Origin: a virus
Taxonomy: Duplodnaviria; Caudoviricetes
Virus record (IMG/VR): IMGVR_UViG_3300022841_000021
Span: 1 to 51,285 of that record
Length of the DNA: 51,285 nucleotides
Reading direction: 5' to 3' (one strand)
Below the pieces are notes generated by a model. It had not been told where the DNA came from. It ran no database searches and saw nothing but the letters and a program-made list of their open reading frames with translations. Below are positions 2,212 to 51,285 of this stretch, piece after piece. Position numbers and translations under genes: made by a program. Each line of letters begins with the position of its first letter. Positions within the stretch are counted from its first letter, which is position 1.

Positions 2212-3519
2212 ATGCCATTGAATATTATTCAAAAATTAAGAAAACTAACGTGGACAAGAGATTCTTCAGGAAATAACTGGTACGTTAAGAACGGTGGGGA
2301 CGGCTTTGGTTCTATCGAAGGTATGACTAATTTGCAAATTGCTCAAAATCACCCTATATTAACACCTTCACTTCTTTTTATATCAAAACTATTTAGCCAG
2401 GCAGAATTTAAGGTTAGGAATAAGGATACTAAAAAAGAAGAAAAAAACCATTGGTTGATTAAACTATTAAACAACCCAAACTCTTACCAAACAAAATCAG
2501 ACTTCTTAGAAAGTTTACAGTTTAGTCAAATCGCTCAAGGTAAAGCAGTAGGTTACTTGAAGAGACCTATTGGTTTTTCAGACGCACAGGATATAGACTC
2601 AATATATCTTTTAGACTCTGATTTAATAGAGTGGCCACAAAACTATAAATCCAAAATGGTTTCTAAAGTTGCTTCAAAAACCATTGACTCTCATAAAATA
2701 AAATACGATAAAGATGGTGAAAACTTAACTATTCAAGTAAAAGACTTAATTTTCTTTTATGATTTACCTAACGGATTAAATAGAAATTTCTATGACGTTA
2801 AATCTCGTTTAGACGGCTTAAAACAAACTTTAATTAATACAAACGACTCTTTAATAGCTAAGAATATAATTCTTAAAACAAACGGCAAGGAACTTATAAG
2901 TGGCGGGAACAATGAGCACTTTCCTTTGGGTTCAGTTGATAAGGAGAACGCAGAAAGCTTATTGCAGAACAATTATGGTTTAGGTTGGTTTAGAAAAAGA
3001 GGCATTGTTACAAAGGCAAGTATAAACTATCAATCTTTACATATAGCTTTAAGAGACCTAGGTCTTGATGAATCTGTGAAAGTAGACGGTAACTTAATAT
3101 ATACTGCCTTACATATTCCAAAAGATATTATTTCTTTAGAAGCTAAGAAAACAACCTACAACAACTTTAAGGAATCTATGGTTTCTTATATTCAAAACGA
3201 AATGCAGGCTAGTATAAACTCCTTTACTGATGTAATGAATGAGTTGCTTGTAGATACTGAATTTGAGTTAGTTGGTACTTACGAGCATTTACCTATAATG
3301 CAATTCATACTTATTGAGCGTTATGAAGGTATTAGTAAAAAAGCAAAAGCTTTAAACGACTTACTTATGACGGGTATCCCTAAAGAGGTTGCTTTGGAAA
3401 TGTGTGGGTTTGATAAAACACTACAATTAGAAGAAATTCAAGTAATATCAGCATCTACAAATTCAAATATAGAATCAAATCAAAACGAAAATCAAGATGG
3501 AGAAAACGAAGCTGAGTAA
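2212..3519 (+). CDS. Portal protein (module A)
   Basis: LLNNPNSYQTKSDF...GKA...IDSIYLLDS portal motifs; size; precedes protease and capsid; ATG 2212 preferred over TTG 2191. Confidence 0.85.
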   Translation: MPLNIIQKLRKLTWTRDSSGNNWYVKNGGDGFGSIEGMTNLQIAQNHPILTPSLLFISKLFSQAEFKVRNKDTKKEEKNHWLIKLLNNPNSYQTKSDFLESLQFSQIAQGKAVGYLKRPIGFSDAQDIDSIYLLDSDLIEWPQNYKSKMVSKVASKTIDSHKIKYDKDGENLTIQVKDLIFFYDLPNGLNRNFYDVKSRLDGLKQTLINTNDSLIAKNIILKTNGKELISGGNNEHFPLGSVDKENAESLLQNNYGLGWFRKRGIVTKASINYQSLHIALRDLGLDESVKVDGNLIYTALHIPKDIISLEAKKTTYNNFKESMVSYIQNEMQASINSFTDVMNELLVDTEFELVGTYEHLPIMQFILIERYEGISKKAKALNDLLMTGIPKEVALEMCGFDKTLQLEEIQVISASTNSNIESNQNENQDGENEAE

Positions 3520-3589
3520 AGAGGAGTTAGAAAAAATAATTGCTTTAAAGAAAAAAGCGATTAACGGTAACAAGATTATTAACAAGTAG
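3497..3589 (+). CDS. 30-aa basic mini-protein between portal and protease
   Basis: MEKTKLSKEELEKIIALKKKAINGNKIINK fills the gap exactly. Confidence 0.4.
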   Translation: MEKTKLSKEELEKIIALKKKAINGNKIINK

Positions 3590-3593
3590 AATT

Positions 3594-4421
3594 ATGAAGA
3601 TAGAAATTCCACAATACGAAACAAGAAAAGAATTATTTGATTTCTTAATCCTAAACAAGGACACTTTAATTACTCAAAAAAAAAGCGTAATAAAGTTGGC
3701 TGACGGAATAGGATATACTCAATTACCTAAAGAGTATATTGATAGCGTAAATAAATCAACATCTTCAAATGAAAACCCGTCAGAAGTTCAGGTAAAAGTA
3801 GTTATAAATACTACAAACCTACTAGACTCACACGGAGACGTTCACGTAAAAGGTATTTGGAACAAGTCTTTAAAAGAGAATAAAAGAATAATGCATATTC
3901 AGGAACACCAATCAAGTTCTTTTGATAAAATAATATCTAGTGGGGATGACTTAGTTGCTTCGGTAAAAACAATGTCTTGGAAAAGCTTAGGTTATGACGC
4001 TATAGGAAATACTCAAGCACTGGTATTCGACTCAACAGTAAAGGAATCTCGTAATAAATATATGTTCGACCAATACAAACAGGGGTTTGTTACAAACCAT
4101 TCAGTTGGTATGAGGTACGTAAAAATGGAACTTGCAATAAATGACAAGGACTATGAAAAAGAAAAAGGAACTTACGATAAATATATATCTCAAGTAATAA
4201 ATAGTGACGATGCCGAAAAATTAGGTTACTTTTGGGTCGTAACAGAGGCAAAAGTAATTGAAGGCTCGGCTGTCCCTATGGGTAGCAATCCAATTACACC
4301 AACAATAAACACCAAAAGTGAGCCGTCTTTCCTTGATATGATTGGAAAAATAGACACTCACAAGAAAGCCGCACAAGGCACTTTCGATATATTTGATGCA
4401 ATTAGTAAAACAAATTTTTAA
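3594..4421 (+). CDS. Prohead protease (HK97-like, module A)
   Basis: DSHGDVH, HSVGM, EGSAVPMGSNP motifs; position. Confidence 0.8.
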   Translation: MKIEIPQYETRKELFDFLILNKDTLITQKKSVIKLADGIGYTQLPKEYIDSVNKSTSSNENPSEVQVKVVINTTNLLDSHGDVHVKGIWNKSLKENKRIMHIQEHQSSSFDKIISSGDDLVASVKTMSWKSLGYDAIGNTQALVFDSTVKESRNKYMFDQYKQGFVTNHSVGMRYVKMELAINDKDYEKEKGTYDKYISQVINSDDAEKLGYFWVVTEAKVIEGSAVPMGSNPITPTINTKSEPSFLDMIGKIDTHKKAAQGTFDIFDAISKTNF

Positions 4422-4438
4422 TTTAAAACCAATTTAGT

Positions 4439-5698
4439 ATGACAAAAGAAGAATTTGACGCACTTATTTTAAAGATAGAAGGTTCTATCGGTACGTCTAT
4501 GGACACAAAGTTAAAGGATGCTTTTAAAGAAGTAAATCCAGCTGTCTTAAAAGCAATTAGTGACAATTCAGTTGAGTTGAAAGCTACAATCGAAGCGTTA
4601 GGAAAAACTAACGAAGGATTAAAAACTGCTCAAAAAGAGCAAGGAGGCGTAATTGAAGGCTTACAGGCTGAGATTAACAAATCTAACAAAAACGAAAACC
4701 TATCTTTTAAAGACCAAGTAAAATCTTTACTTACTGAGAATAAAGATAAGTTGACTTCAATGAAGAACGGAGATTCTAAAACTAACGTTCGTATGGCTGT
4801 AAAAGCTGTGGGAAATATGACTTTTGGAAACGTTACGGGTCAAATTCCACAAGGGGAAAGAGAAGCTGGTATCACTAGAGTTGTAAGAAGAAATCCTTTT
4901 ATTGTAGAATTAGTGAACGTAGGTTCAATTACTTCTAACTTATGGGAGTGGGTTCAACAAGCTAATCCAGAAGGAGATGCAGCAATGACTGCGGAGGGTG
5001 CTAAAAAGGCTCAAATCGATTTCGATTTAGTTCTTGCTAGTGCGTCAGTACGTAAAGTTACTGCTTTCATCAAAGTATCTAAAGAGATGTTAGATGATAT
5101 TCCTTTAATTGAAGCTGAAATCAACCAAGAACTTACTGAGGTAATTAATCTTAAAATTGATGCTCAAGTATTATCAGGAGACGGTACGGGTCAAAACTTA
5201 GTAGGTATTAAGGACAACGCAGTAGCGTTTGCACCAGGTAGTTTTGCAACAGGTCAAGCTAATGAGGTTTCTACTCCAAACAACCAAGATGTATTGAGAG
5301 TAGCTATTAATCAGATTGCTATTGCTGAATTTCAGCCAAACTATATTATAATGCACCCATCAGATGCAGCAGCTATGGATTTATCTAAAGCAACTGACGG
5401 TCACTATATATTACCTCCGTTTTCTACAAACGCAAACACGGTAGTAAAAGGTATTCCTATTATTACAAACGTAGGTATGTCTGAAGGAGATTACCTAGTA
5501 GGAGACTTTACTAAATCTGGAGTAAGATTCAGAGAAGGTTTAGTTTTTGATGTAGGTTACGAGAATGATGATTTTACAAAGAATTTTGTAACTATATTAG
5601 CAGAGGCTAGATTAGTTCAGAGAGTAAAATCTAATCACTATCCAGCATTTGTATTAGGAGACTTTGCAACTGATAAAGCAGCTATAGCGAAAGCTTAA
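4439..5698 (+). CDS. Major capsid protein, HK97 fold (module A)
   Basis: N-terminal coiled delta domain, EGAKK, VSKEMLDD, LSGDGTGQNL.GI, IMHP.D, GDF motifs. Confidence 0.95.
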   Translation: MTKEEFDALILKIEGSIGTSMDTKLKDAFKEVNPAVLKAISDNSVELKATIEALGKTNEGLKTAQKEQGGVIEGLQAEINKSNKNENLSFKDQVKSLLTENKDKLTSMKNGDSKTNVRMAVKAVGNMTFGNVTGQIPQGEREAGITRVVRRNPFIVELVNVGSITSNLWEWVQQANPEGDAAMTAEGAKKAQIDFDLVLASASVRKVTAFIKVSKEMLDDIPLIEAEINQELTEVINLKIDAQVLSGDGTGQNLVGIKDNAVAFAPGSFATGQANEVSTPNNQDVLRVAINQIAIAEFQPNYIIMHPSDAAAMDLSKATDGHYILPPFSTNANTVVKGIPIITNVGMSEGDYLVGDFTKSGVRFREGLVFDVGYENDDFTKNFVTILAEARLVQRVKSNHYPAFVLGDFATDKAAIAKA

Positions 5699-5838
5699 TG
5701 GGGTTCTATAAAGATAACACCGTTGAAGTAAAATTTAACGGTGTAATTAAAAGAGTTTCTAAAGAGGTAGCATTAATCTTAAAGAAATCTGGTAAATTAG
5801 ATGGCCAGAAGAAAGAAAAAATAAAAACTGATAAGTAA
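5698..5838 (+). CDS. 46-aa small head-region protein
   Basis: TAATG-coupled on both sides; MGFYKDNTVEVKFNG... Confidence 0.55.
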   Translation: MGFYKDNTVEVKFNGVIKRVSKEVALILKKSGKLDGQKKEKIKTDK

Positions 5839-6494
5839 TGAGTAATATAATTGACGCAACATATTTCGAAAAAGGTTCACTTTATATCCCAAACAACAAG
5901 GATATGAATGCATCCCCTGAAGGAACTCCAACTAATCAAACTGATTTGGATTTTTTTATAATTGAATACGAGCGTGAATTGTTACTTAATGCTTTAGGTA
6001 TAGTATTATATGAAGAATTATTAACAGCACTTGAAGACTTAGATATATCTGCTCAGAAGTGGAAGGATTTAGTCAACGGACTTACTTATGAAAACATAGA
6101 AGGCGTTAAAAAACGCTGGGACGGTTTAATAGGTTACAATAATCAAAGTGTAATTGCTTTTTATATATATACTAAATACCTTAGAAACTATAATGAAACA
6201 TTTGCTACTACGGGAGTGGTTCGTAATGATTCAAAGAACGCTACTAACTATGACGCTACGCCAAAATACATTAAAGCGTATAACTCATTTTTAGAAAAAT
6301 ACCAAGCAGACTTACTACCTCAGCCAAGATTCTATGCAAATAGATTCGGAACAGAGGGTATTGACTGGTATGGTTCCGAGAAAGTACAGGTTTCATTATT
6401 TCAGTTTTTAACTGATTCTAACGAATTAGATGAAACAGCTTTTCCTGATTTTAAGTTTAAGTTCTATGAACAACAAAACTCATTTGGTATATGA
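5838..6494 (+). CDS. Putative head-tail adaptor (module A)
   Basis: Position after capsid; helical acidic protein. Confidence 0.55.
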   Translation: MSNIIDATYFEKGSLYIPNNKDMNASPEGTPTNQTDLDFFIIEYERELLLNALGIVLYEELLTALEDLDISAQKWKDLVNGLTYENIEGVKKRWDGLIGYNNQSVIAFYIYTKYLRNYNETFATTGVVRNDSKNATNYDATPKYIKAYNSFLEKYQADLLPQPRFYANRFGTEGIDWYGSEKVQVSLFQFLTDSNELDETAFPDFKFKFYEQQNSFGI

Positions 6495-7006
6495 TTGTAA
6501 CTGAGCACTTCATTCAAGCAATTGTAGATACTATTCCTTCGGTTAGAATCAACCAAAATGTATCTTCTAAACCGAAGTTTCATTGGGGCGATGAAGACGA
6601 GTTGAATAGATACGTGCAGTTAAAGCAAAATGATTCATATCCATTAATTTGGCTTCTTCCTACAACCGATAATTACGAAGGTTCTCTAGGTCAAGAGGTA
6701 ATTAAGGAGTGTTCTTTTATAATAGCAACAAGGGAGACTAGAAAAGAGTTGTTTAATAACGAAAGGTACAAAAAATCATTTGATACGGTGTTACAGCCCT
6801 TAACAGATAAGCTAATACACGGTCTTACAACCTCTTCTATAAGTGATAGGGTTGGTGATAAATGGGAGGTTATGAAGTTTCCAAATTACTCAGCAAGTAG
6901 TGATGAGAACGGAACAATTGACCTTTGGGACGCTATTGGTTTAACAATAGAAGTTAGGTTTCACTCTGATTTAAAATGTATAAAAACTATAAATTATGGC
7001 AGTTAG
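6491..7006 (+). CDS. Putative tail terminator/completion protein
   Basis: Position before tail tube; YPLIWL motif. Confidence 0.5.
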   Translation: MIVTEHFIQAIVDTIPSVRINQNVSSKPKFHWGDEDELNRYVQLKQNDSYPLIWLLPTTDNYEGSLGQEVIKECSFIIATRETRKELFNNERYKKSFDTVLQPLTDKLIHGLTTSSISDRVGDKWEVMKFPNYSASSDENGTIDLWDAIGLTIEVRFHSDLKCIKTINYGS

Positions 7007-7142
7007 TAAAAAAAAGAAAGTAGCGGTTGCTATTTCTCAATTCACCTTTTCAGGAATCCTGTATAAATTAGGAGATACTTTTACAGGTAAGAAAGGTCAA
7101 ATAGATTCATTAATCATTAAAAATTTAATAAAATGGCAGTAA
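6996..7142 (+). CDS. 48-aa small protein
   Basis: MAVSKKRKVAVAISQFTFSG..., overlaps both neighbours. Confidence 0.4.
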   Translation: MAVSKKKKVAVAISQFTFSGILYKLGDTFTGKKGQIDSLIIKNLIKWQ

Positions 7143-8068
7143 TAAACACAATAGCCTCAAAATCTGCGGGTTGCGGAGGCTCAACAATTAATACGGGTGA
7201 CTTAGGATGTGATGTAGACTTCGGTCTAGTTATACACGCACTTGGGTTCAAGAAAGGAATTAAAATTCCTAAAACTACAGATATCAATAAAGCGTATATC
7301 GATAAATTAGTACAATCAGGAGATGTAATTCCATTAATGGATGCTTTCTCTTCTGAGCCAACAATGTCTGAAGACACTTTAGAGACTTCACCTTTAGGTG
7401 TTGAGGCTTTAACTTTAAAAGGTCTTCCTAAGTATATGTTGACAATGAAGAAGGGTCAGCATTATTACAAGGAAATGGCTAAGTTGACTGGTTTTGGAAA
7501 CTTAAACTGGGTACTTGGAGATGTAAACGGAAATTGGAAATTCGCAGTAACTACTGAAGGAGATTTTACAGGTTTTACTTGTGGTCAAACATTGGCTTCA
7601 ATCACGGTACCAGCAACGGCTACTGAGACTGAGAAAAAATCTTTTTCTTTTCAGTTAACTGATAGAACTCAAATAGATTCAACTTACGCAGTTGTCTTAG
7701 CTTCTAATCTTTTCCCTATTTCTGATATTTCAGGAGTTAACGGAGTTGCTTTATCTTTTGAAGATGCTAACGGTGCGGTTGTACCTGCTAGCGGGGATAC
7801 TACCTTAAAGGTAAAAGCTTTACTAGATTCTGATAAATATACTGGAGTTGAAGGTCTTAGTGCTTCTAACTTCTCTTACTTAGTTGGTACTACGGAAGAA
7901 ACTCCTACGCTTGTTGATAACGGTGACGGTTTCTACACTTTAACTATCACTGCTTTATCGTCTTCTACTATTTCTTTAAAATTATATGATTCAAGCGAAA
8001 GCGAAAATACTATAATCTTAGAAAGTGAATTGTATAGAAGTAACTTATTAAGCGCAGTAGTAGCTTAG
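7133..8068 (+). CDS. Major tail (tube) protein with probable C-terminal Ig-like domain (module A)
   Basis: S/T/G-rich, DNGDGFYTLT motif, followed by a terminator. Confidence 0.7.
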   Translation: MAVINTIASKSAGCGGSTINTGDLGCDVDFGLVIHALGFKKGIKIPKTTDINKAYIDKLVQSGDVIPLMDAFSSEPTMSEDTLETSPLGVEALTLKGLPKYMLTMKKGQHYYKEMAKLTGFGNLNWVLGDVNGNWKFAVTTEGDFTGFTCGQTLASITVPATATETEKKSFSFQLTDRTQIDSTYAVVLASNLFPISDISGVNGVALSFEDANGAVVPASGDTTLKVKALLDSDKYTGVEGLSASNFSYLVGTTEETPTLVDNGDGFYTLTITALSSSTISLKLYDSSESENTIILESELYRSNLLSAVVA

Positions 8069-8090
8069 TAGTTTACTTGTAAGTAAATTT

Positions 8091-8124
8091 AAAACCCTTT
8101 CTCAATGCGAGGAAGGGTTTTTTT
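8091..8124 (+). terminator. Intrinsic terminator
   Basis: AAAACCCTTTCTC-AATGC-GAGGAAGGGTTTT plus T run. Confidence 0.85.
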
Positions 8125-8136
8125 AACACCTATTAT

Positions 8137-8592
8137 ATGTCAAAATTTAATGTATTGGATTACAAAAGAAGGCTTAGTTCATTTCACGTAGAAAAGAATA
8201 TATCAAAAGCAGTAAAAGAAGGTGCTTGGCAAATAATAGACTTAAATAAAATAAATCTAGCTAAGGGATTAAATAGTAAAGGAAGATTAGTAGGTACTTA
8301 CTCCGTGGTAACTCAAAACTACGCTAGAAAAGGAAGAAGACCAAATGAAAGCAAAAAAGCAGGTACTACTTATAATTTTAACTGGACTGGTGCCTTTATT
8401 AATGGAATTTTCATAACTTACAAAAATGATAAAATATCCTTCTCAAGTACAGGACTGGGACTTAGTAAGAAAAATTTTTTTATATTGAGTAACGATTTGT
8501 TAGGGGTTGAGAAAAATAGAAATGAGTTAATAAATTACGATATACTAGCACCTAGGCTGAGAAGGTATTTTAAAACACATATAGGTAAATAA
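8137..8592 (+). CDS. Basic neck/tail-completion-like protein
   Basis: Basic; TGAF motif; position. Confidence 0.45.
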   Translation: MSKFNVLDYKRRLSSFHVEKNISKAVKEGAWQIIDLNKINLAKGLNSKGRLVGTYSVVTQNYARKGRRPNESKKAGTTYNFNWTGAFINGIFITYKNDKISFSSTGLGLSKKNFFILSNDLLGVEKNRNELINYDILAPRLRRYFKTHIGK

Positions 8593-8593
8593 T

Positions 8594-9262
8594 ATGAAAG
8601 AATATTTAGGCTTCGAAGATATACCAGTTTTCAACTTCTACAAGATAGTAGAAACTTCAGACGTTAGGTGGTTTTATAAAAAGTTTAGGTTCGATAAAGA
8701 TATAACTGCGGAAGGTGAGGTAAAATCTGAACTACTAGAAAGATATAAAGAGGTTTACAATGATAGGGTTAAATATACAAATGATATCAAGACAGGCGAG
8801 TATTATAGAAAGCTTAATGAGTTAAGTGATTTGGAGACAAAATTATTTAGAATAACTTCATCATTCGATGTTTTAGTAGAGATTAATTTCGACAATGAAT
8901 TGTTTAACGAGTACGTAGAGTACTTTTCTGAAGATGAAGGATATGTTTTTGTAAAAAAAATAACAAGCAAAGAAATAAGGCTAGAGTACTTGGTATGGTT
9001 AAGGAAAAGGATAAAAGGCTTTAAGACTAAAACAGCCGTTAAGAAAGCAAATTATGCAGATATTTTAAAACCAGCTGAAATTAATTCTAAAAACGCTAAA
9101 TTTGACCCAATCAAAGAAAAGATACTTTTACAGGAATCTTTAGGGGTTACAATAGATATTTATAAATGTCCTTTAATTGAGTGGTGCGCTATGATAATTA
9201 GAGCCGAAGAAAAGTCTAAAGAAGCTAAAGAGCAGGTAGAAAAAATAAAACGTAAAAGATAA
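8594..9262 (+). CDS. Putative tail assembly chaperone
   Basis: Immediately upstream of the tape measure gene. Confidence 0.45.
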   Translation: MKEYLGFEDIPVFNFYKIVETSDVRWFYKKFRFDKDITAEGEVKSELLERYKEVYNDRVKYTNDIKTGEYYRKLNELSDLETKLFRITSSFDVLVEINFDNELFNEYVEYFSEDEGYVFVKKITSKEIRLEYLVWLRKRIKGFKTKTAVKKANYADILKPAEINSKNAKFDPIKEKILLQESLGVTIDIYKCPLIEWCAMIIRAEEKSKEAKEQVEKIKRKR

Positions 9263-9266
9263 AGGT

Positions 9267-12200
9267 ATGGCAGGTCAAGTTGATGTTATAATTTCAGAGA
9301 AAGCAAGAAGAGAGATAGCTGATGCTACTGTTAGATTAGAGACTTTGCATAGAAAAATACTACAAGTAAATAAGGCAGGTGCTAAAGGAGGTTCGTTGGG
9401 CGTTGGAGGCAACCAGGCTTCAAGTGCTCAATTAGCTAGTTTAAATAAATTAGTTTCAGCAAACAATAGGTTGGCTTCAGCTTCAAATAAAAGCTTATCA
9501 GCGATAAATAGAAACACTGAAGCAACAAGGATTAATACTAGAGAGAATAAAAAGTCTCTAGGAGTTATGAAGGCGTTAAGGGGTGCCGCAGGTGCTTTAG
9601 GATTGGCTTTTGTAGCAATGAAGGTAGCTCAGTTCGGTAAACATATATTTGAACTAGCAAAGACTTTCGATTCACTTAGGTTCGCATTAGAAAGAACTTC
9701 AAAGAACCTTAATGAAGCAGGAATGACTATGAGGTTTATGTTAAAGACATCTTCCGACTTAGGTTTAAACCTGGTAGCTACAACAACAAGATTTATAAAA
9801 TTCGCAGCAGCTGCACGTCAATCTGGTGTTGCAATGAAAGATACTCAGAAGATATTTAAAACAATGGCAACCGCTGGTGCTGTTCTTGGTTTACGTACTG
9901 ATGAGCTAGGTGGTATATTTTTAGCTTTAGAGCAAATGCTTTCTAAAGGAAAGGTAACTACAGAGGAATTGAGAAGACAGTTAGGTGAAAGGCTACCAGG
10001 TGCTTTTGGTATAATGGCAGCTAGTTTAGGGGTTACTCTTCCAAAGCTAGATGAAATGTTAAAAAAAGGAGAGTTACTTTCGGCTGAAGTTTTACCAGGA
10101 TTTGCTGATGCGGTTGAGGTTGCTTTCGGGCTAGATACTGTTGATAAAGTAGAAACTCTTACTGCTGCTCAAAACAGAATGACTACTTCTTGGCAAAACT
10201 TTGTTAAGAATGTAACTGAGTCTGACGGTATTCTTTCTAAAACTTTTAAATTTTTCCTAGACCAAGCTACTCAGGCAATAAACGAGTGGAACGAACTTTT
10301 AAACAATCAAGCCTATATGGACAATAAAAGATTGTCTGCTGGGTTTGACAACGAAACTCAAATAATAAAGTTTCAAGCTAAAAAGAAATTAGAAGATACT
10401 AGAAAAGAGGGTCAAAAACTAGAGGACTTAAATATAAAAATAATAGAATCTAAAGCACTTTTAGAATCTAACGTAAACAATAAGTTAGCTGAAAAAGAGC
10501 TAAGTGACGCAGTATCAGCTAAGCTAGAGTACAATAAAATTTTAGGGGAGTTAGAACAACAAGGTGCTTCTGAAAGATTTAACGCAAGTTTTTCTGCGGT
10601 TGTTGCGGGTCAAAAGCTACTAGACGATGCAAATAAGCGTTTAGAAGGTATAGGGAAAACAAAATCAAAAACAACAGACTCAGAAGGAAACTTCTTTTTT
10701 ACTTACAATAAAAAACAGCAAGCCTCAGCGGATGAAGCTAAGGAAATGATAGAAGACGCTAGGCGTGATTTACAGATACTACAAGGAGCGTTAAATGCTA
10801 CAAGATTATTGGCTGAGAAATCAAAACCAGCCTCTAGCAAGGAAGATGATAAGGGAAAAGGTCAAAAAAACTTAAACGATATAAAAGACCTCGAAAAGAA
10901 GATACAAATAGAAAGGTTACGAAACCAGTTAGAGTACAACAAGGAGGCTATTGGTTTAGAAAGGTACGGGAGCGAACAGAGGTTATTTTTATTAAAGAAA
11001 AACGCAGAGCACTTAGAAAGCATAGCTAGATTAGAATTAGAAGACTCTATTCAAAACGACAAACAAAAAAGAGACTCAAAAATAGAAGCAATTAAAAAAT
11101 CAATAATAGATAAAACATTAGGAGAAAAGAAGGGGAACGACCAGATAACTTTACTGAACAAAGAGTTTACACAAAAGGAAAAACTAGCAACTTTAAAGCA
11201 TGACGGTGAGTTAATAAAAATACAAGAAGACCTAGACTCTGAAATAGAAAGCGAAAGAAAGGACGGCATAAAGAGGAGGCTTCAAACGGTTCAAGCTGGT
11301 TTTGATAAAGAAGAGACTGCTGCAAATGATTTGTTTAAAGCTAGTCAAAAAACCACAAAAGATAGGGAGTTACTAGAAAAAACTCTAACAGATATTGCGT
11401 TCAGGTCTTCAAATGCTAGGATAGATATATTAATAGAGGAGCAGAAGAAACTTTTAGAAGTTGACGGTTTATCTGAAGAGTATATACTTAAAATAAAAGC
11501 CATAATTGCAAAGCTAGACGCTAGCAGGGGGGTACCTGGTTCTAAAAAAATAGACAAAACAGCTCAAGAGCAGTTTGAATCTGATATGGGTTATGTTAAA
11601 GATTTTTCAGATGCTATAGGTAGTATAGGAGACGCTATATTTGATTCAAAGATTGCTAGGATTGACGCAGAGATTCAAGCAGAACAGGACAAGTACGCTT
11701 TACTATTTGCGTTTGCGGAAGGTGACGCAGAGGCTCAGAGGTTATTAGCTATTCAACAAGAAGAGGATATGCAAAGGCTAGAGGCTAAGAAAAGAAAAAT
11801 GCAAAGAAAACAAGCTGTATTTAATAAAGCTCAAGCTTTGGTTGATATCGCAATAAACACAGCGGTAGCTATTTCTAGGATTGTAGCCGAGGGTGGTTTG
11901 TTTTTAGGTTTACCTTTGGTACCGGTTATTGCTACCCTAGGTGCTCTACAAGCCGCAGCTGTACTTGCTCAACCTTTACCTGCTTTTGCTGAAGGTGGTG
12001 TGATGGGTCACGATGGACCAGCATTGGTTGGGGATGGTGGTAAGCAAGAAGTTATACGAACTCCTGACGGAAAAGTGTCTTTAACACCCGCTACTGATAC
12101 AGTTATGAATTTACAAAAAGGTACTGAAATATTTTCATCCGTAGAAAAGTTTAATCAACAAAACCCTAGCGACATGAGTAGTATGTTACACTCCGCTTCC

Positions 12201-41413: not shown

Positions 41414-41435
41414 CATATATTTACATAAAAAAGAT

Positions 41436-41735: not shown

Positions 41736-41754
41736 CCAACTTTACACACCTATT

Positions 41755-43725: not shown

Positions 43726-43778
43726 CTTAACCCTATACTTTTCCTCGAAGTATGTTTTTTCTTTTTTAGCTTTTTTTT

Positions 43779-43806
43779 CCTCACTATTAATTTAGTGAGG
43801 TTTTTT
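43779..43806 (+). terminator. Intrinsic terminator
   Basis: CCTCACTA-TTAATT-TAGTGAGG plus T run. Confidence 0.8.
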
Positions 43807-43821
43807 ATTTATGCAGTAGTT

Positions 43822-44184: not shown

Positions 44185-44245
44185 CGTTTTTATCCTTTTT
44201 AAGCAAATATAGTAAAAACCACCACAATACAAAACTTATTTCATA

Positions 44246-44310
44246 GTATCGCAATGGGTATAAATTATAGTTATTAATATCGCATTTGGTATAAATTATA
44301 TTTATCTTTG
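44246..44310 (+). promoter_or_regulatory. Late promoter block, copy 2
   Basis: 56/65 identical to 39495-39559; ends in TATCTTTG. Confidence 0.7.
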
Positions 44311-44336
44311 GTATATAATTATAAAAATATACAAAA

Positions 44337-44771
44337 ATGAGTACTTTTATTAAAGGCGATGCCGTTATTCTATCTATCTGGGATGGTTCAGCTTATTTAC
44401 CAGTAGGTTGTTTAACCTCAAACTCTTTAAGCGTTACAAGAAACGTAATTGAAGCACAGACTAAATGCGCACCTAGTCAGATTATTAGACAAGCGGGTTC
44501 GACAAGTTCAGAAGTTTCTTTCGAAGCAACTTATATTAAAACAGATGCAACAAAAACAGACTTTAACGCACTTTTAGATTTTATAAACGTTGCGCAAGGA
44601 ACTACACAAGATTGGAAAATGACAAGCGACCAAGATGCGCCTGTAGCTTACTATGGCTCTGCGGTTTTGGCTGACTTAGAGATTTCTGCTGCTGCTGGTG
44701 ACGAATTTGCTACTTATAGCGGAACGCTACAAAATAGCGGTTTAATTGTAACTGTAGATCCTAACGCATAA
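44337..44771 (+). CDS. Major tail tube protein (module B)
   Basis: GCLTSNSL, ATYSGTL; precedes chaperone and tape measure. Confidence 0.8.
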   Translation: MSTFIKGDAVILSIWDGSAYLPVGCLTSNSLSVTRNVIEAQTKCAPSQIIRQAGSTSSEVSFEATYIKTDATKTDFNALLDFINVAQGTTQDWKMTSDQDAPVAYYGSAVLADLEISAAAGDEFATYSGTLQNSGLIVTVDPNA

Positions 44772-45145
44772 TGACAAATAAAATAAAGCTAAATTTTGAG
44801 GGTAAAGAACTGGGTTTTCATTTCGGACTGGGTTTTTTAGGTGAGTTATTGGATAGTTTAGACTGTTCTATTGATGAATTGGATGCGAATATTAAAAATA
44901 ATCCTTTTAAGGTCATTCCTAAATTAATGTATACTTCTTATGCTTATAATCTTGAGAGAGAAGGCAAAGAAGTTGCGTTAAAACTGTATGATTTTATAGA
45001 CTTATTAGATAGTGTTGGCGGTGTAGCTTCTGACGGCGTTAGTTTGTTTTTAGATGCGTTTAGTAACAGTATGACAAAAGACGTACCAGTAGCAAAAAAT
45101 AAAATTCCAACGTCGGGAAAGAAGAGAGCGAACCCAAAGAATTAG
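44771..45145 (+). CDS. Tail assembly chaperone (gpG-like)
   Basis: Position; G-GGA-AAG slippery site near its end. Confidence 0.8.
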   Translation: MTNKIKLNFEGKELGFHFGLGFLGELLDSLDCSIDELDANIKNNPFKVIPKLMYTSYAYNLEREGKEVALKLYDFIDLLDSVGGVASDGVSLFLDAFSNSMTKDVPVAKNKIPTSGKKRANPKN

Positions 45146-45456
45146 ACTGGGCAAGTGATATAATTTCTTTCGCTTTAGGAGAACTAAATACTCCGTCTTT
45201 GTCTTACGTTTACGATATGACGTGGGCGGAGTTTTGTATTAGGCAACACGCTCACAGACGAATAGAAAAAAACGAATGGTATAAGGTTCGTGAGATGGCT
45301 TACGCTTCATTAATAGGTTCTCATATTGACCCTAAGAAGTTACCTAAATCTAAAGATAAGTTTATTCCTTTAGACGGTGAAAGTAACGCAAAAGGTCTAA
45401 GCGATGTTCATAGGAATGCTATTTTAAAGGCTCAAAAACAATATAATAAAAAATAG
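45115..45456 (+). CDS. -1 frameshift extension of the chaperone (gpGT-like)
   Basis: -1 frame is open from GGGAAAG (45115-45121) through ELDWASDIISFALGEL...DMTWAEF to 45456. Confidence 0.8.
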   Translation, partial: GKEESEPKELDWASDIISFALGELNTPSLSYVYDMTWAEFCIRQHAHRRIEKNEWYKVREMAYASLIGSHIDPKKLPKSKDKFIPLDGESNAKGLSDVHRNAILKAQKQYNKK

Positions 45457-45458
45457 TA

Positions 45459-47666
45459 ATGGCAGAATTAAGCGTAGAGATATCCGCAAAAATTGACAGG
45501 TTATTATCGGAGTTAGGTAAAGCAAAAAAAGCTTTAGGCGGTATCGGTGCGGCTGCTGAAAAACTCACAGACAAGTTAAAAAGAGTTGGAGAGAAAATGG
45601 GTAGAATAGGTAAGTCTATGGCTACCTATTTAACGTTGCCTTTGTTAGCAATTGGTGGCGCTGCTATCAAAATGTCTTCGGATTTTACAGAAAGTTTAAA
45701 TAAAGTTGATGTAGCTTTTAAAAGTTCTTCTAAAGAAGTACGTAAATTTGCAAAAACAACTTTAGAAACTTTTGGTATTGCAGAGGGTACTGCCTTAGAT
45801 ATGGCTGCACTTTTTGGAGATATGGGTACTTCTATGGGTATTCCAACAGATAAGGCGGCTATTTTAGCGACTTCTTTAGTTGGTTTGGCTGGAGATATGT
45901 CATCTTTTAAGAACATTAACATTAAAGAGGTTACAACGGCTTTAAATGGTGTTTTTACAGGTGAAACTGAATCTTTAAAAAGAATGGGTATTGTAATGAC
46001 AATAGCCAATCTAAAAGCTTACGCACTTTCAAAGGGTATATCTGGTAACATTGAAGCAATGACACAGGCACAAAAGGTGCAACTTCGTTACGCTTATATT
46101 TTATCAATAACTAAAAATGCACAAGGAGATTTCGCACGGACTAGCGATGGTTCTGCCAATCAAATGAGAATCTTTACGGAATCCGTAAAAGAGCTATCCG
46201 TAGCTTTTGGTGAGATATTATTACCATATTTTACTAAGGCAATTACCTACGTAAACAAATTAGTAAAAGCATTTACAAATTTAAGCCCAACCACAAAAAA
46301 AATAATAGTTGTAGTCGCTGCTTTGGTGGCGGTTGTCGGGCCTTTGTTAATTGGCTTAGGGTTTTTATCAACTACAATAATACCCGCATTAATTACAGGC
46401 TTTACAATTTTAACTGGCCCTATAGGGTTAACTATTGCTGCTATAGCTGCTTTAGGTGTTATAGTTTACAAGAGCTTTGATGCTATTATTGTGAAAGTGG
46501 CTGAATTTTATAATTCTTTTGTAGACGTTTATAATCAAAGTGCTTTATTAAGAGGTATTATCGCAGCGATTGGATTACAGTTTAAAAACGTTTGGACACT
46601 TGCAAAATTTGCTTTTAAGAGTATTTGGGCTTATATGAAAAGCTTTGGCTCTAATGTTATAAATTTATTTAAAAACATAGGTAAGGTTATAACTGGGGTT
46701 TTAGGTTTAAATCCAGCAAAAATAAGCGAAGGAATAATAGGTGCTAAAGATATTATAACTAAAGGTTTATCTAATATAGGTAAAGAAGTTTCTAAATACG
46801 CTAAAGAAGCAGGTGATGAAATAGGCGTAAATATTGCAAAGGCTTTAGATGAAACAGTAAACGGAGAGTTAAAACATAAAACACCACAAGAGATAAAGAA
46901 AAGTTTAACTTCTTTAGGAAACTCACTAAAAGAAACTGCAAAAGAAGTAGGTAATTCTATAGGTATTTCTTTAGCAGACGGAGTTACAGAAGGCTCAACT
47001 AATGGTAGAAGTAAGACAGTAGGATTGAATTTAGATGGTTTATCAAGTGGCGTTAATTCAGAGCCTTTATCTTTACCAATGATGCCTTTAATTGATACCG
47101 AACAGTTTGATATGCAAGCTGCATTAATGAGGGAAAAGGCACAACAATTTAGTGATGGTGTTTCAAATATATTACAAAATGGTGTTTTATCTACATTTGA
47201 ACAATTAGGTAATAATATAGGGATGGCGCTAGCAAATGGCGGTAATGTAATTCAAGCTTTTATGGGTACTATTCTTAGTGCAATGGGAAGTACATTACAG
47301 AAATACGGTTCTTTGGTGGTTGCAGCGGGTATTGCAAGTGAAGCTTTTTCTAAATCTATGAAAAACCCTTTCGGTGGTGGTATTGGAGCTATAATAGCTG
47401 GTACTGCATTAATAGCAATAGGTGGTGCAGTAAAGTCTTTTAGTGGTGGTTTAGGTAAGGGGTCATCTAGCGGTGGTTCTTCGTCTAGGGGTTCAGGTGC
47501 TAGTGATTTTAGCGGTTCAAGTAGCGGTGGAAACTTTGGTGCTTCAAGTGGTTCTAGCGGTCTACAGAACGTAGTATTCGAGATACAAGGCACAAAATTA
47601 GTAGGTGTGTTAAGTAACACACTTTCAAGGAATAGAAGTTTAGGTGGCTCTTTAAGTTTGACATAA
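45459..47666 (+). CDS. Tape measure protein (module B)
   Basis: 735 aa, A/G-rich helical; LTLPL, GETESLK..G, AQGDFART motifs. Confidence 0.93.
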   Translation: MAELSVEISAKIDRLLSELGKAKKALGGIGAAAEKLTDKLKRVGEKMGRIGKSMATYLTLPLLAIGGAAIKMSSDFTESLNKVDVAFKSSSKEVRKFAKTTLETFGIAEGTALDMAALFGDMGTSMGIPTDKAAILATSLVGLAGDMSSFKNINIKEVTTALNGVFTGETESLKRMGIVMTIANLKAYALSKGISGNIEAMTQAQKVQLRYAYILSITKNAQGDFARTSDGSANQMRIFTESVKELSVAFGEILLPYFTKAITYVNKLVKAFTNLSPTTKKIIVVVAALVAVVGPLLIGLGFLSTTIIPALITGFTILTGPIGLTIAAIAALGVIVYKSFDAIIVKVAEFYNSFVDVYNQSALLRGIIAAIGLQFKNVWTLAKFAFKSIWAYMKSFGSNVINLFKNIGKVITGVLGLNPAKISEGIIGAKDIITKGLSNIGKEVSKYAKEAGDEIGVNIAKALDETVNGELKHKTPQEIKKSLTSLGNSLKETAKEVGNSIGISLADGVTEGSTNGRSKTVGLNLDGLSSGVNSEPLSLPMMPLIDTEQFDMQAALMREKAQQFSDGVSNILQNGVLSTFEQLGNNIGMALANGGNVIQAFMGTILSAMGSTLQKYGSLVVAAGIASEAFSKSMKNPFGGGIGAIIAGTALIAIGGAVKSFSGGLGKGSSSGGSSSRGSGASDFSGSSSGGNFGASSGSSGLQNVVFEIQGTKLVGVLSNTLSRNRSLGGSLSLT

Positions 47667-47669
47667 TAT

Positions 47670-49790
47670 ATGAAAAAATTACAATTAAGTTTTATTAGCA
47701 GTTTGCAGCTAAATAACAGTATTATAGTTACTTATAGCGTAGGGGGTGTTAATGGTGATTTAATAGAAACATTTGTAGAGCCTGAAAATGCTAGAGCCTT
47801 TCATCCAGGAATAAATGAATCTACAGAAATACTTGCTATTAATTACGCTAATAGATTTAGATTCGATTATAATGCTGACATCTTTAAAGGTGGTTTAACC
47901 ATCACTAAAACAGGTAGTGTTTTAAATTTAACATCGACAGATACAACCGTAACTTTTCACGCAGTAAGCGGAACGGCTATATCTAGCGGTAAAGTAACTT
48001 ATGTTTTAAGTGATCCTGTTCCTGCACCTTTACCTATACAAAACTTAAAGTACTATTTTGAATTTAACGATGTTGTAGATGTTAGGCATAGAGTGGAAAT
48101 ATTAAGCGCAGAATTTGATGGAGAGCCTACGAAAATCTACGGAAGTTGTAGTTTAGAATATTCAGAAACAGACGACACGTTAGAACCAATAAGAGGTTCG
48201 GGTTTAAAAATAGACTTACAAGCGGATTCTAATTTAACATTCTACGACCTTTATAGCGAAGAGGAGCGCACTTATTCAGTAACCTATAAAAGAGATGCTT
48301 TAGGAACTAATACAACGTTATTTAATGGTTGGTTAAGCCCAGAGGGTATTTATGAAAGCCTAGTAACTGATAAATGGGTAATTTCTTTAGACTGTACAGA
48401 CGGTCTTGGATTCCTTAAAAACTTATCTTACGTAGAAGATGCTAACGGTCTTAGTTTTGTAGGTAAGCAAAGCCTAATTAAAATAGTTTCTAACTGCCTA
48501 AAAAGGACTAAAATAAACTCAAACATATTTGTTGGTATAGATATTTACTACGAGGGTTTACGAAATGACCTTTCTATTTTTGAGAATGTTTACTATAACT
48601 CGGATCGGTTTGTGAAAGACGATAAAGATACAATAATGAATTGTGACGAAGTTCTAAGAAGTGTTTTAGAGCCTTTTGGTGCGGTTATTACGGCTTATAA
48701 AGGGCAATGGCTAATATATAAACCGAACTCTTTAGTAACTGCTACAATACCGTCTTTTTTCGGGTACGACTTTAGCGGAGATAATTTATTAATACCTAAA
48801 AAGAATTTTGATTTTAGAGTTACTTTAGGTAGTCAGATAAACGGTTATTACCCACACCACGTAAACGCCAACCAACAAAAGACAGTTAAAAGTTCTATAG
48901 GTGCTTTTCGTATAAATTACAAGTATGGATTGGTTGATAGTTTAATACTTATAGACCCTTTTACACTATCTGGAAGCGATGGTGGGTTTCAAAGTACTAC
49001 TAAGATAGTACCTACAAGTAGTAGGTTAAAGCTTACCGTAAATACAAGTTGTAACTTTTTAAATAATGAGGGTTTTAGTTCTGATGTAGTTTTAAAAATT
49101 ACTAATGGTGCAGAAACATATTATTTTAACGGTAGTGAATGGGTTACGACTTTGGCTAAAATGCCTTTGCAAGTAAATGGTAGTTTTTTAGCAAGTACAA
49201 GCGCAACACCTATAAACGGAGATTTAAGTGTACTTATACCACAGGTAAATACATATCCTAACTATCTTAATGAGACTGGCGAAGTTTATGTTAGGTTTGT
49301 TATTGATGTCGTTCCATTATCTGCGGAACTTGAGGCAATAGGAGAAAACCATACATTTCAAAGGTTACTAAGACCATCTTCAAAAATTAAGGATATAAAA
49401 CAAGTTTTTAACGGAGATAATCCTACGGATACCTATTATGGTACAATATACGAGTTAGACCAATTTACACCCACAGAGAATTGGAATAGATTAGGGGTCG
49501 AAGAAAAAAAACCAATTCTAAAAATAATGGGAGAGGAGCGTATGAAAATGTATGGTAAACCATTGCAAGTCTATAGCGGTGATATTTTCGGATATTTTGA
49601 TTATTTAAACCTTGCTACTATTAGCAATTTTAACGGTGTTTTTATGGTTACTTCGTATAGCTATGATTGTTTGTCTAACGTAACGTCTATAACCTACGTA
49701 GAAGTTTTAGATACGGACATCTTAGAAGATGTAGATTATCAATTTACTTTAGATTATGGCAACGTTGTAGAGCCAACTATTCGTGGATAA
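47670..49790 (+). CDS. Tail tip protein (module B)
   Basis: Large beta-rich ORF after tape measure; DGLG.LK motif. Confidence 0.65.
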   Translation: MKKLQLSFISSLQLNNSIIVTYSVGGVNGDLIETFVEPENARAFHPGINESTEILAINYANRFRFDYNADIFKGGLTITKTGSVLNLTSTDTTVTFHAVSGTAISSGKVTYVLSDPVPAPLPIQNLKYYFEFNDVVDVRHRVEILSAEFDGEPTKIYGSCSLEYSETDDTLEPIRGSGLKIDLQADSNLTFYDLYSEEERTYSVTYKRDALGTNTTLFNGWLSPEGIYESLVTDKWVISLDCTDGLGFLKNLSYVEDANGLSFVGKQSLIKIVSNCLKRTKINSNIFVGIDIYYEGLRNDLSIFENVYYNSDRFVKDDKDTIMNCDEVLRSVLEPFGAVITAYKGQWLIYKPNSLVTATIPSFFGYDFSGDNLLIPKKNFDFRVTLGSQINGYYPHHVNANQQKTVKSSIGAFRINYKYGLVDSLILIDPFTLSGSDGGFQSTTKIVPTSSRLKLTVNTSCNFLNNEGFSSDVVLKITNGAETYYFNGSEWVTTLAKMPLQVNGSFLASTSATPINGDLSVLIPQVNTYPNYLNETGEVYVRFVIDVVPLSAELEAIGENHTFQRLLRPSSKIKDIKQVFNGDNPTDTYYGTIYELDQFTPTENWNRLGVEEKKPILKIMGEERMKMYGKPLQVYSGDIFGYFDYLNLATISNFNGVFMVTSYSYDCLSNVTSITYVEVLDTDILEDVDYQFTLDYGNVVEPTIRG

Positions 49791-49845
49791 TTTCAGTATA
49801 TTTATTTAAACTTTACGATACGTTTTATCTATATTTGTATTGGAT

Positions 49846-50310
49846 ATGATAAACGGAACTTATAGTATACTTTACTTAGATATTGGCGAGGGCTTCTTAC
49901 CTATTGGATGCCTTACCTCTAACGGATTTTCTGAAAGTGTAGAAACTTTAGATTCTACAAATATAGAGAATGGCGGTTGGAAAACTTACGTATTAACCAA
50001 CCAAGAATATAGCATAGACTTTAGCGGTGTTGCTTTAAATACCCTTTATAATGGCGGAGATACTACTAAATTTTCTTACGATATTCTTAAATTAATTAAG
50101 AGAAACAGACTTTTAATAGATTGGAAAATACAAGACAATCAAGGCAATATTGACAACGGAAAAGGCTATTTAACAGATTTATCTTCTGAAAGTAATATAG
50201 ATGAATTCATAACTTTTAGTGCTACTATTTTAGGCTACGGTATACCAGTTAGCACAAACATTAACCCAATAGATTCGGGGCTAGAATCTCACTTAGAAAC
50301 TTTAATATAA
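49846..50310 (+). CDS. Second tail-tube-like protein
   Basis: LPIGCLTSN vs LPVGCLTSN and DEFITFSATI vs DEFATYSGTL in 44337..44771. Confidence 0.7.
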   Translation: MINGTYSILYLDIGEGFLPIGCLTSNGFSESVETLDSTNIENGGWKTYVLTNQEYSIDFSGVALNTLYNGGDTTKFSYDILKLIKRNRLLIDWKIQDNQGNIDNGKGYLTDLSSESNIDEFITFSATILGYGIPVSTNINPIDSGLESHLETLI

Positions 50311-51285
50311 TGGCAAAGATACAGTATAACGATAAAGTAAATATAATAAGTCAGCCAGTACCCGAAGTAAATAAGGTTACTGCAGCAAACTTAAACGAGA
50401 TAAAAACAAGCGTTAATATCAACGTTGATAATATTGCTTTAAATGCTACAGACTTGTCGTTAAAAGCCGATATAAGCGGAAACAGTAGCGAGATTTTTAA
50501 AATTGCTAATGGTTTGTCTGCTAATGATGCCGTTAATCTTACGCAATTAGACGGATTAGAAACAACTTTACAAAATAACATAAACACAGAGGCAACCGCA
50601 AGAACAACCGCAGATACTACTTTACAATCTAACATTGATTTAAAAGTAGATATTGCGAGCATTGTAGACAACGTAACTTCGGGAGGTGTAAGCGTTCCTT
50701 TATCAGCAGAGCAAGGAAAGATACTAAAAGCAGAAATACTAGCCTTAGCAGGTTCTTTAATACCTCAAGGGAATTGGGATGCAGACACAAATACGCCTGA
50801 CATTACAACAGCAACTGAAACAGGTTATTTTTGGATTGTTTCGGTTGAGGGTGCTACAGATATTGGAGGGATTACTGATTGGAAAGTAAACGATTGGGCT
50901 ATAAAAACTGCTAGCGGTTGGGCTAAAATAGATAACACAGATAAAGTTTTAAGCGTAGCTGGTAAGATTGGAGAGGTTGTTTTAGCTAAAGCAGATGTAG
51001 GATTGTCTAATGTAGATAATACAACGGATGCAAATAAACCGATTTCAACGGCACAACAAACCGCTTTAGACTTAAAAGCTAATAAGGCTTCACCAAGTTT
51101 TACAGGAAATGCCAATTTTGCGGGTCTTGTTACAATAAATAATAGACTTGATTTAAGTGATGCCTTAAATAATACTTTTATAGGTAGTAGTGTTGGAGAA
51201 AATAACACAACGGGAAGTTCCAACGCAGCTTTAGGCTACCTAAGTTTACAAAATAATACAACTGGAAGTGGAAACGTAGCTTTAG
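50310..51285 (+). CDS. Tail fibre (module B), truncated by window end; not in ORF track
   Basis: MAKIQYNDKV... open to the end; from 50562 nearly identical to fibre A. Confidence 0.88.
   Translation, partial: MAKIQYNDKVNIISQPVPEVNKVTAANLNEIKTSVNINVDNIALNATDLSLKADISGNSSEIFKIANGLSANDAVNLTQLDGLETTLQNNINTEATARTTADTTLQSNIDLKVDIASIVDNVTSGGVSVPLSAEQGKILKAEILALAGSLIPQGNWDADTNTPDITTATETGYFWIVSVEGATDIGGITDWKVNDWAIKTASGWAKIDNTDKVLSVAGKIGEVVLAKADVGLSNVDNTTDANKPISTAQQTALDLKANKASPSFTGNANFAGLVTINNRLDLSDALNNTFIGSSVGENNTTGSSNAALGYLSLQNNTTGSGNVAL
50562..51285 (+). repeat. 724-bp direct repeat, copy 2
   Basis: Aligns without gaps to 17174-17897. Confidence 0.97.

Follow-up and report, generated by a model that had tools for sequence, protein, structure and literature searches.

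How does one viral record come to carry two unrelated sets of head and tail genes around a single set of lysis, integration, and replication genes? This question is raised by IMG/VR record IMGVR_UViG_3300022841_000021 (Duplodnaviria; Caudoviricetes), all 51,285 bp of which were analyzed here and are referred to as the window. It is a single-contig virus record, classed as linear, with a CheckV completeness of 100%. Family searches place head-tail module A at 2.2 to 16.7 kb and the unrelated module B at 34.7 to 50.3 kb, with one lysis/integrase/replication core, and the two modules lead into fibre genes that share a segment. A first-pass annotation, made from the letters alone, had offered three models: a 33.4-kb circular phage B fused in assembly to a co-occurring phage A with the same fibre, tandem prophages at one tRNA gene, or one genome or co-integrate that encodes two virion types. 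Our analysis favors the first of these. The record is very probably a co-assembly of two phages of one salt-lake community, namely, a complete circular phage B of 33,388 bp and a fragment of phage A; a 127-nt overlap, closure of the fibre reading frame, synteny in relatives, and contig depths all support this reading.

The record ends on an exact copy of an internal site

The fibre gene as assembled (positions 16721 to 19627, plus strand) encodes 968 residues, with an A-specific anchor at residues 1 to ~140 and a part common to B from residue 141 onward. The 5' part of the B fibre gene (50310 to 51285, plus strand) lies in an open reading frame (ORF) that is still open at the end of the record; its residues 1 to 72 are specific to B, and residues 73 to 325 are shared. 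At the DNA level, the shared segment occupies 17170 to 17897 (copy 1) and 50558 to 51285 (copy 2), both on the plus strand, and copy 2 reaches the last base of the record. The first-pass annotation had described the same 724-bp segment on two different anchors. The unlike N termini and the shared segment hold, but the copies extend over 728 nt and differ at 54 positions (92.6% identity; 233 of 253 residues at the protein level), with 30 synonymous and 13 nonsynonymous codon differences.

These 54 mismatches are not spread evenly. All of them precede position 17771, such that 17170 to 17770 (601 nt) is 91.0% identical between the copies and 17771 to 17897 is 100% identical. The final 127 nt of the record (51159 to 51285, plus strand), where the record stops, are exactly equal to this second stretch, a feature that the first-pass annotation missed. 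The 127-mer is bounded on the left by mismatches at 17769 and 17770 and begins right after the last difference between the copies; the longest exact run ahead of it is 77 nt. Since the end of the record exactly repeats an internal site over 127 nt, the record has the form of a lasso, composed of a 17.8-kb tail (1 to 17770) and a 33,388-bp cycle (17771 to 51158). We infer that the record ended where a k=127 de Bruijn path re-entered a used node, the 127-nt figure being the source of both the type of assembler and the value of k. Such an assembler would have followed phage A into the shared block, gone round the phage B circle, and stopped at the first 127-mer that it had already used. Overlaps of 127 nt also occur in other records of the same collection, as a direct terminal repeat in one (G001) and as an inverted repeat in another (G003).

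The shared part of the fibre additionally contains six tandem 51-nt units (17760 to 18160), which encode a 17-residue repeat (LQNNTTGxxNVALGyxx). In copy 2, the record ends within the first of these units.

The cycle reads as a complete temperate phage

We read the cycle (17771 to 51158, plus strand) as the complete circular map of phage B. When the cycle is closed, the fibre ORF continues in frame across the junction and comprises 2706 nt and 901 codons with no internal stop. Starting from the distal fibre, the map then runs through the lysis genes, endonuclease VII, the exonuclease, the integrase, the phage attachment site (attP), the repressor, the early and replication genes, the terminase, and the head and tail genes to the 5' part of the fibre gene, and every module of a temperate siphovirus is present exactly once. 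Phage B would thus carry its own repressor, Erf, SSB, and replication genes, terminase, head, tail, 901-residue fibre, lysis genes, and exonuclease.

Gene order in relatives agrees with this closure. Among 23 B-type loci, the order was checked in L001, L089, and L090, along with G006, the whole contig of L090. In all three loci, the order across the closure is conserved: a distal tail protein is followed by a receptor-binding protein, small ORFs, an exonuclease, and an integrase on the minus strand. L001, the closest B-type relative (exonuclease, 91% identical; integrase, 84% identical), and L090/G006 run on into early genes, in L001 by way of a repressor homolog, and G006 (35.5 kb; CheckV, 95%) continues to terS, terL, the portal, and the rest of a single B-type module. 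No A-type genes were found in L001, L089, or L090/G006. The genome lengths implied by four contigs (G006, G007, G009, and G010) are 37 to 40 kb.

The tail belongs to a separate lineage

The tail of the lasso (1 to 17770, plus strand) is assigned to phage A on the basis of PHROG matches and synteny with four relatives, G002 to G005. Its genes are small early/late genes, an HNH endonuclease gene, those for the portal, capsid, and tail, and the 5', chassis-specific portion of the fibre gene; TerL and genes for lysis or replication are absent. A search for A-type relatives gave five loci, and five whole contigs (G001 to G005) were read. The entire A module is present in G002 to G005 at 50 to 82% protein identity, including the two small ORFs that precede the portal. 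These contigs are 21 to 27 kb long and 46 to 58% complete according to CheckV, which implies a full A-lineage genome of ~46 kb; the A stretch of the record would then be about 38% of a separate genome from another siphovirus lineage.

In G002 and G003, the fibre gene is followed by the relatives' own genes for a small transmembrane protein, an amidase, and a holin, with the genes for TerL and an exonuclease paired at another place on the contig. When the ORFs of G002 to G005 were compared with the core and B part of the record, the only matches were weak or partial: TerL (25 to 27%), the shared part of the fibre (G002), and a small early ORF at 29482 to 29664 (G002 and G003). The record has only one terminase, one lysis cassette, and one integrase because A's own copies lie outside it. 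The terminase, lysis, and replication genes of phage A would all be located in that missing part of its genome. A search of viral_contigs with the G002 TerL gave close matches only to G002 and G003 themselves, and the rest of an A-clade genome was not recovered. Only one genome of the wider A lineage, G001 (53,356 bp, with a 127-nt direct terminal repeat), is complete. Nearly all of its long ORFs are on one strand, its TerL gene lies ~7 kb upstream of the portal gene, and no PF00589 integrase was found in it.

Comparison of the two modules within the window bears out the reported lack of obvious DNA similarity. Outside the fibre, the sole blastn match between A and B is 199 nt at 78% identity (1295 to 1493 versus ~33179 to 33377), and only three protein pairs match, namely, a 112/128-residue pair, the capsids (23%), and the fibres. 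The single-copy status of the integrase, repressor, TerL, and lysis region was likewise borne out by family searches. The duplication of the structural genes was also borne out: both modules have a portal, a capsid, and a tape measure. The labels of protease and tail tube given to two A proteins have no family support. Megablast searches with 1 to 25000 and 25001 to 50000 gave no match in the phage collection.

The 199-nt match lies in a gene for a phrog_2452 protein that is present in both A (1154 to 1492) and B (32994 to 33380), where it closes the early region in each case; the two proteins are 62% identical.

Depths in salt-lake metagenomes are additive at the fibre

Four salt-lake metagenome runs (X1 to X4) contain 93 to 95% of the words sampled from positions 12501 to 22500. 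Depth was taken as the mean k-mer depth of single Logan contigs lying wholly or largely within 7001 to 27000 and does not represent mapped reads. In X1, A contigs have depths of 25.2 (7,989 nt, 9173 to 17161), 27.3, and 30.6, the fibre contig (17644 to 19689) has a depth of 44.7, and core contigs have depths of 21.5, 20.4, 14.2, and 16.9. The corresponding values in X2 are 24.4, 24, and 23 for A, 39.8 for the fibre (17678 to 19689), and 18.8, 18.7, 16.7, and 20.3 for the core. In X4, they are 5.5, 6.4, 5.5, and 5.4 for A, 19.6 for the fibre (18739 to 19689), and 16.5, 14.6, and 9.7 for the core. The sum of the A depth and the mean core depth predicts fibre depths of 43.5, 43.0, and 19.1 in X1, X2, and X4, compared with contig depths of 44.7, 39.8, and 19.6. 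At the same time, the A:core ratio shifts ~3.5-fold, from ~1.3 in X1 and X2 to ~0.4 in X4. In three runs, therefore, tail and cycle vary independently, and the node that they share has the sum of their depths.

The distal fibre block (17644 to 19689, plus strand) is represented by single contigs in X1, X2, and X4 that contain no alternative letters. The A/B differences at 17674, 17677, 17692, and 17698 do appear as alternatives, so both fibre copies are present in the runs. The divergence between A and B resumes before 20269, where contigs fall to core depth. Taken together, the additive depths and the uniform fibre contigs indicate that A and B are separate genomes whose distal fibres show no difference from ~17771 up to at least 19689. 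The first-pass annotation had named depth as a means of telling its models apart, and the contig depths of three runs, with a step at the fibre and unequal values for A and core, favor two genomes.

These depths are difficult to reconcile with a single real genome of at least 51 kb that encodes two virion types with one fibre design, of which the record merely broke off at the second fibre copy. The figures for X1 and X2 (A, 25; core, ~18; fibre, 40 to 45) fit the 1:1:2 ratio expected of such a genome only roughly, and in X4 the fibre depth of 19.6 equals A (5.5) plus core (~14) and is not twice either. The CheckV completeness of 100% would suit one genome, but a single terminase would have to serve both virions, and A-type relatives keep their own TerL and lysis genes elsewhere. 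Moreover, A-type and B-type relatives each exist alone: none of the 5 A-type contigs examined, and none of the 4 B-type contigs or loci, carries the other module. The two modules were not seen on one molecule at equal copy number. We consider a two-virion genome hardly credible.

A weaker form of this idea is that a real recombinant or co-integrate, perhaps a minority, joins the A head-tail module through the fibre to the B lysis/integrase/replication region and exists beside free B circles. The assembler did connect A with the core by way of the fibre, and with a shared block of ~2 to 2.5 kb, read-pair support could underlie that connection. Coinfection by A and B followed by homologous recombination in the identical block would make such molecules transiently, and the contig depths are compatible with a minor fraction of them. 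However, the core is shallower (~18) than A (~25) in X1 and X2, and therefore most A genomes cannot run on into the core; at most, part of them could be joined. The fibre depth is already explained by A plus core, the combination of A, core, and B exceeds 51 kb and is larger than the genome estimates for the two lineages (~46 kb and ~33 to 40 kb), and no such join is present in the relatives examined. A co-integrate is therefore improbable, though less so than a genome with two virion types, and we favor two separate genomes.

Other contigs in the same runs show additional complexity. Summed contig depths at 17006 to 17672 (131 to 168) and 19674 to 20340 (118 to 283) are several times those of A plus B in X1, X2, and X4; the proximal shaft of the fibre and the lysis leader are therefore common to more than two phage genotypes in this community. 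A joint between 20303 and 24364 on opposite strands occurs in contigs of X1 and X2 (depths of 15 and 29), and a joint between 21242 and 8942 with 9 extra letters occurs in X2 and X4 (depth of ~180 to 190). Other members of the community with short stretches in common are the probable source of both joints. A fifth run, X5 (marine, 2025), has no contig cover at 7001 to 17005 and many short contigs of 90 to 99% identity at 17006 to 27000; we did not use it as evidence of B without A, since a gap in contig cover is no proof of absence.

The integrase and attP go with phage B

A tyrosine integrase (24366 to 25673, minus strand; phrog_1, PF00589) shares 84% identity with the L001 integrase and 67% with its counterparts in L089 and L090, which adjoin B-type tails. 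Upstream of the integrase gene, in the direction of the repressor, lies a 47-nt sequence (25724 to 25770, minus strand) that corresponds to the 3' portion of tRNA-Met(CAT), from the anticodon stem through the 3' terminus. It was found through a weak Rfam tmRNA-end match and then by eye; ARAGORN reported 0 tRNAs over the whole record. The 47 nt match exactly in five Bacteroidota genome contigs (Flavobacterium, Polaribacter, Chitinophagaceae/Chitinophagales, and Parasediminibacterium), and in all three of the genome contigs that were scanned they make up the 3' terminus of a complete tRNA-Met gene. We therefore identify the fragment as the core of attP. The alignment with L001 is unbroken from 24365 to 26753, through the tRNA fragment and with phage genes on both sides, which corresponds to the unintegrated form of attP; a 30- to 33-nt part of the fragment is kept in L089 and L090. 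Judged by the sequence match of the tRNA fragment, the host of phage B is probably a member of the Bacteroidota. Phage B would then be a temperate siphovirus whose tyrosine integrase targets the 3' end of that host's tRNA-Met gene. A search of genome contigs with the integrase protein gave 111 pattern matches, none of which was confirmed, and the host assignment relies on the tRNA fragment.

The partial tRNA is also the main attraction of the tandem-prophage model, in which A ends with lysis genes, exonuclease, and integrase at a half-tRNA, and B starts there. With attP between integrase and repressor, a B-type prophage would in fact have its integrase at the end once integrated. The fragment does not lie between lysis genes and integrase, however, where the first-pass annotation had placed it, but between the start of the integrase gene and the repressor side, and the same phage genes flank it in L001. 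An exonuclease and integrase follow the tails in 3 of 3 B-type relatives examined and in 0 of 5 A-type contigs, which argues against their assignment to A. No bacterial DNA or host genes were found in the record, and neither host DNA nor a hybrid attL or attR site is present at the junction. Finally, A and core differ in depth, by a ratio that changes between samples, and the record ends on the exact 127-mer repeat. Tandem prophages are therefore extremely unlikely.

Several points weigh against co-assembly and should be set beside the evidence above. No contig was seen that leads from the A fibre into A's own downstream genes, read pairs may have supported the path from A to the core in the original assembly, and the assembler used there and its k are deduced, not documented. 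The depths are k-mer means of Logan contigs, and the core includes strain variation, such as half-depth variants at 22662 to 22759. They cover 7001 to 27000, with the B structural region (27 to 50.5 kb) assumed to have the same depth as the core. Runs X1 to X4 may include the source sample and may all come from one campaign.

Borders of the shared block and a possible transfer between lineages

The fibre N termini of G003, G004, and G005 match residues 4 to 140 of the A fibre at 43 to 51% identity, and this region is therefore a chassis-specific anchor. Each fibre would consist of such an anchor (~140 residues in A and 72 residues in B) joined to the same exchangeable block. Within the block, the first 600 nt are 91% identical, and from 17771 at the latest to at least 19689 identity is complete, over the remainder of the fibre and the start of the lysis leader. 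The highly similar distal fibres on unrelated anchors, in genomes that are otherwise unrelated, fit modular fibre exchange.

The left border of the block lies in the coiled, repeat-rich shaft, where identity begins at 17170. Near the right border, downstream of the fibre stop at 19627, a partial lysis leader with 17 codons of a dead holin start (19660 to 19749, plus strand) has ATA where ATG would be expected. It is followed by the full leader (19747 to 19847, plus strand), which contains the real holin start, an ATG at 19834; the two repeats are 93% identical. The full leader recurs at 83 to 90% identity in two otherwise unrelated phage contigs, L225 (9630 to 9737) and L226 (reverse complement, 1226 to 1326), where it precedes a different first gene of 110 codons. 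This leader of ~100 nt is a candidate for a shared promoter or a recombination border. Going by these repeats, the stretch from 19660 to 19886 may be read as a conserved recombination border together with a scar left by a previous insertion.

A loose end behind 19839 in X1, X2, and X4 was considered as the continuation of phage A and was rejected, as it matches only L225 and L226, phages without A or B genes. Its 30-nt consensus had 0 matches in viral_contigs and two in metagenome_contigs, to the same two contigs, which have in common the ~100-nt leader and some lysis-gene homologs. Its first 12 codons, compared by eye with the starts of the first ORFs after the G002 and G003 fibres, gave no match.

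We infer from these borders that the block was recently transferred between the two lineages by homologous recombination, with a left crossover in the diverged shaft and a right crossover at the conserved lysis leader. The Erf-like annealing protein of phage B may have helped in the exchange, and the shared block would give both phages the same receptor. Two observations point to different origins of the block. The fibres of G002 and G003 contain a stretch of 60 to 62% identity at the same place, which suggests that the exchanged block is at home in A-type fibres, and the resemblance of the dead holin start to the B holin suggests a donor with B-like lysis genes. Distal fibre residues 561 to 968 had only four partial relatives in viral_contigs, all on other chassis, and these were uninformative on the direction of transfer.

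On the B side, a 156-residue tube-like ORF (49840 to 50310, plus strand; phrog_1407, as for the B tube) matches the N-terminal 130 to 145 residues of a receptor-binding protein of 441 to 512 residues in L001, L089, and G006. In the record, this ORF stops there, and the fibre gene begins on its stop codon. By this comparison, the B fibre gene seems to have replaced the distal part of a B-type receptor-binding protein.

A more far-reaching scenario is possible, although we put it forward only tentatively. Phage A may be virulent, as the one complete genome in its wider lineage lacks a tyrosine integrase, and phage B temperate; the fibre block of ~2 to 2.5 kb would have been exchanged between them so recently that no substitution has arisen in 2 kb, with a crossover at a lysis leader common to several unrelated phages of the community. 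If this is true, the two genomes would record a direct in situ flow of a receptor module between a virulent and a temperate phage of the same Bacteroidota host.

Gene content of the two phages

Long ORFs are on the plus strand throughout the window, with three exceptions. In phage A, an HNH endonuclease gene (820 to 1149, plus strand; PHROG match) precedes the head-tail genes (2191 to 16714, plus strand), which match phrog_12, phrog_10, phrog_18891, phrog_15220, and phrog_26672. These comprise, all on the plus strand, the portal (2191 to 3519; phrog_12, E value of 1e-16), a 275-residue protein with no PHROG or Pfam match that had been labeled as the protease (3594 to 4421), the capsid (4439 to 5698; phrog_10, E value of 1.4e-44), a putative tube whose only match is phrog_31902, of unknown function (7133 to 8068), the tape measure (9267 to 12395), and two large distal tail or virion proteins (12395 to 14668 and 14672 to 16714).

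The region upstream of the portal distinguishes the close relatives of phage A. Among portal-relative loci (from L108 to L187), 59 have at least 1700 nt upstream of the portal. An A-close clade (portals 68 to 82% identical) accounts for 11 of these and has the order HNH, a 125-residue and/or a 73-residue ORF, and portal, with no TerL between. The remaining 48 (portals 52 to 63% identical) have the canonical order HNH, TerL, and portal. A-close contigs, the record included, tend to begin 1.2 to 4.7 kb before the portal. The only two A-close contigs with TerL are G002 (L192 and L193) and G003 (L194 and L195), both of which are inverted terminal repeat records. Their upstream segment, consisting of small ORFs and, in G002, HNH, leads at one end into the 125- and 73-residue ORFs and the portal and at the other end into TerL and a phrog_22398 exonuclease-like protein, on an arm that converges on the lysis genes. 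Measured as an exact match, the inverted repeat spans 1571 nt in G002 and 127 nt in G003; it could be either a real inverted duplication or a fold-back in the assembly graph.

In phage B, the region downstream of the fibre (19834 to 22746, plus strand) has B/core depth only, with contigs at 21.5 and 20.4 in X1, 18.8 and 18.7 in X2, and 16.5 and 14.6 in X4, and matches PF13539, phrog_2633, and phrog_704. It encodes a 54-residue holin-like protein (19834 to 19998), a 104-residue protein whose C-terminal part includes a hydrophobic stretch, an M15 peptidase endolysin (20304 to 20642), endonuclease VII (20649 to 21101), a 149-residue protein, and the exonuclease (21565 to 22746), all on the plus strand. 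The lysogeny control and replication module (26301 to 33380, mixed strands) contains the repressor (26301 to 26951, minus strand), the Erf-like annealing protein (28247 to 28753), SSB (29789 to 30124), HNH (30143 to 30469), a RusA-like protein (30466 to 30789), the replication initiator (30802 to 31473), a primase/helicase-like protein (31985 to 32983), and the phrog_2452 protein described above.

Packaging, head, and tail genes of phage B follow at 34666 to 50310 on the plus strand. They encode TerS (34666 to 35094), TerL (35081 to 36295), the portal (36354 to 37733), a head morphogenesis protein (37730 to 39328), the protease (39567 to 40238), the capsid (40242 to 41357), a set of adaptor, closure, neck, and terminator proteins between capsid and tube, the tube (44337 to 44771; PF06199), the tape measure (45459 to 47666), and a 706-residue distal tail protein after the tape measure. 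A 65-nt AT-rich repeat (62 to 86% identity) occurs at 39495 to 39559, 44215 to 44279, and 44246 to 44310, directly before the protease/scaffold gene and the tube gene; the copies are possibly late promoters or regulator sites.

Implications and comparison with known systems

For users of the database, a record rated as 100% complete would in this case represent one 33.4-kb phage and 17.8 kb of another, and statements on gene content, host range, or "two capsids" drawn from it would be wrong. Comparing the last k bases of a record with its interior is a cheap way to flag such errors. For phage ecology, the record points to two unrelated siphovirus chassis in one salt-lake community that carry an identical distal fibre, with flanks that suggest where crossovers took place.

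The sharing of a fibre module between co-occurring unrelated phages is a known phenomenon, of which this is a natural example with no new mechanism. Tail-fibre gene exchange among unrelated phages (P2, Mu, P1, lambda, and T-even) was reportedly described by Haggard-Ljungquist and coworkers in 1992. Like those classical cases, the fibres here combine a chassis-specific N-terminal anchor with an exchangeable distal part, in genomes that otherwise share almost no DNA. Unlike them, the partners co-occur in the same metagenomes and would infect uncultured salt-lake Bacteroidota hosts, and the distal 2 kb is free of any difference beside a flank of 91% identity, with a scar, the dead holin start, at 19660 to 19749.

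Phage mosaicism has been attributed to relaxed homologous recombination by Rad52-like annealing proteins of phages (De Paepe et al. 2014, PMC3945230), in a study that reports no exchange between virulent and temperate Escherichia coli phages. Phage B resembles that system in encoding an Erf-like protein and in having a block bordered on both sides by diverged homologous sequence, the kind of trace described there. It differs in that the role of Erf would be a presumed one here, and in that partner A comes from a lineage whose only complete representative has no tyrosine integrase. With respect to assembly, the Phables preprint (PMC10104058) explains that unitigs common to different phage genomes make branch points and that repeats can give chimeric contigs. 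Unlike the cases described there, the path here would be a lasso, with a full cycle and a foreign tail deposited as one linear, "100% complete" record. Integration presents nothing unusual: as in other temperate siphoviruses that integrate in the 3' end of a tRNA gene, the integrase of phage B adjoins an attP that copies the 3' 47 nt of tRNA-Met.

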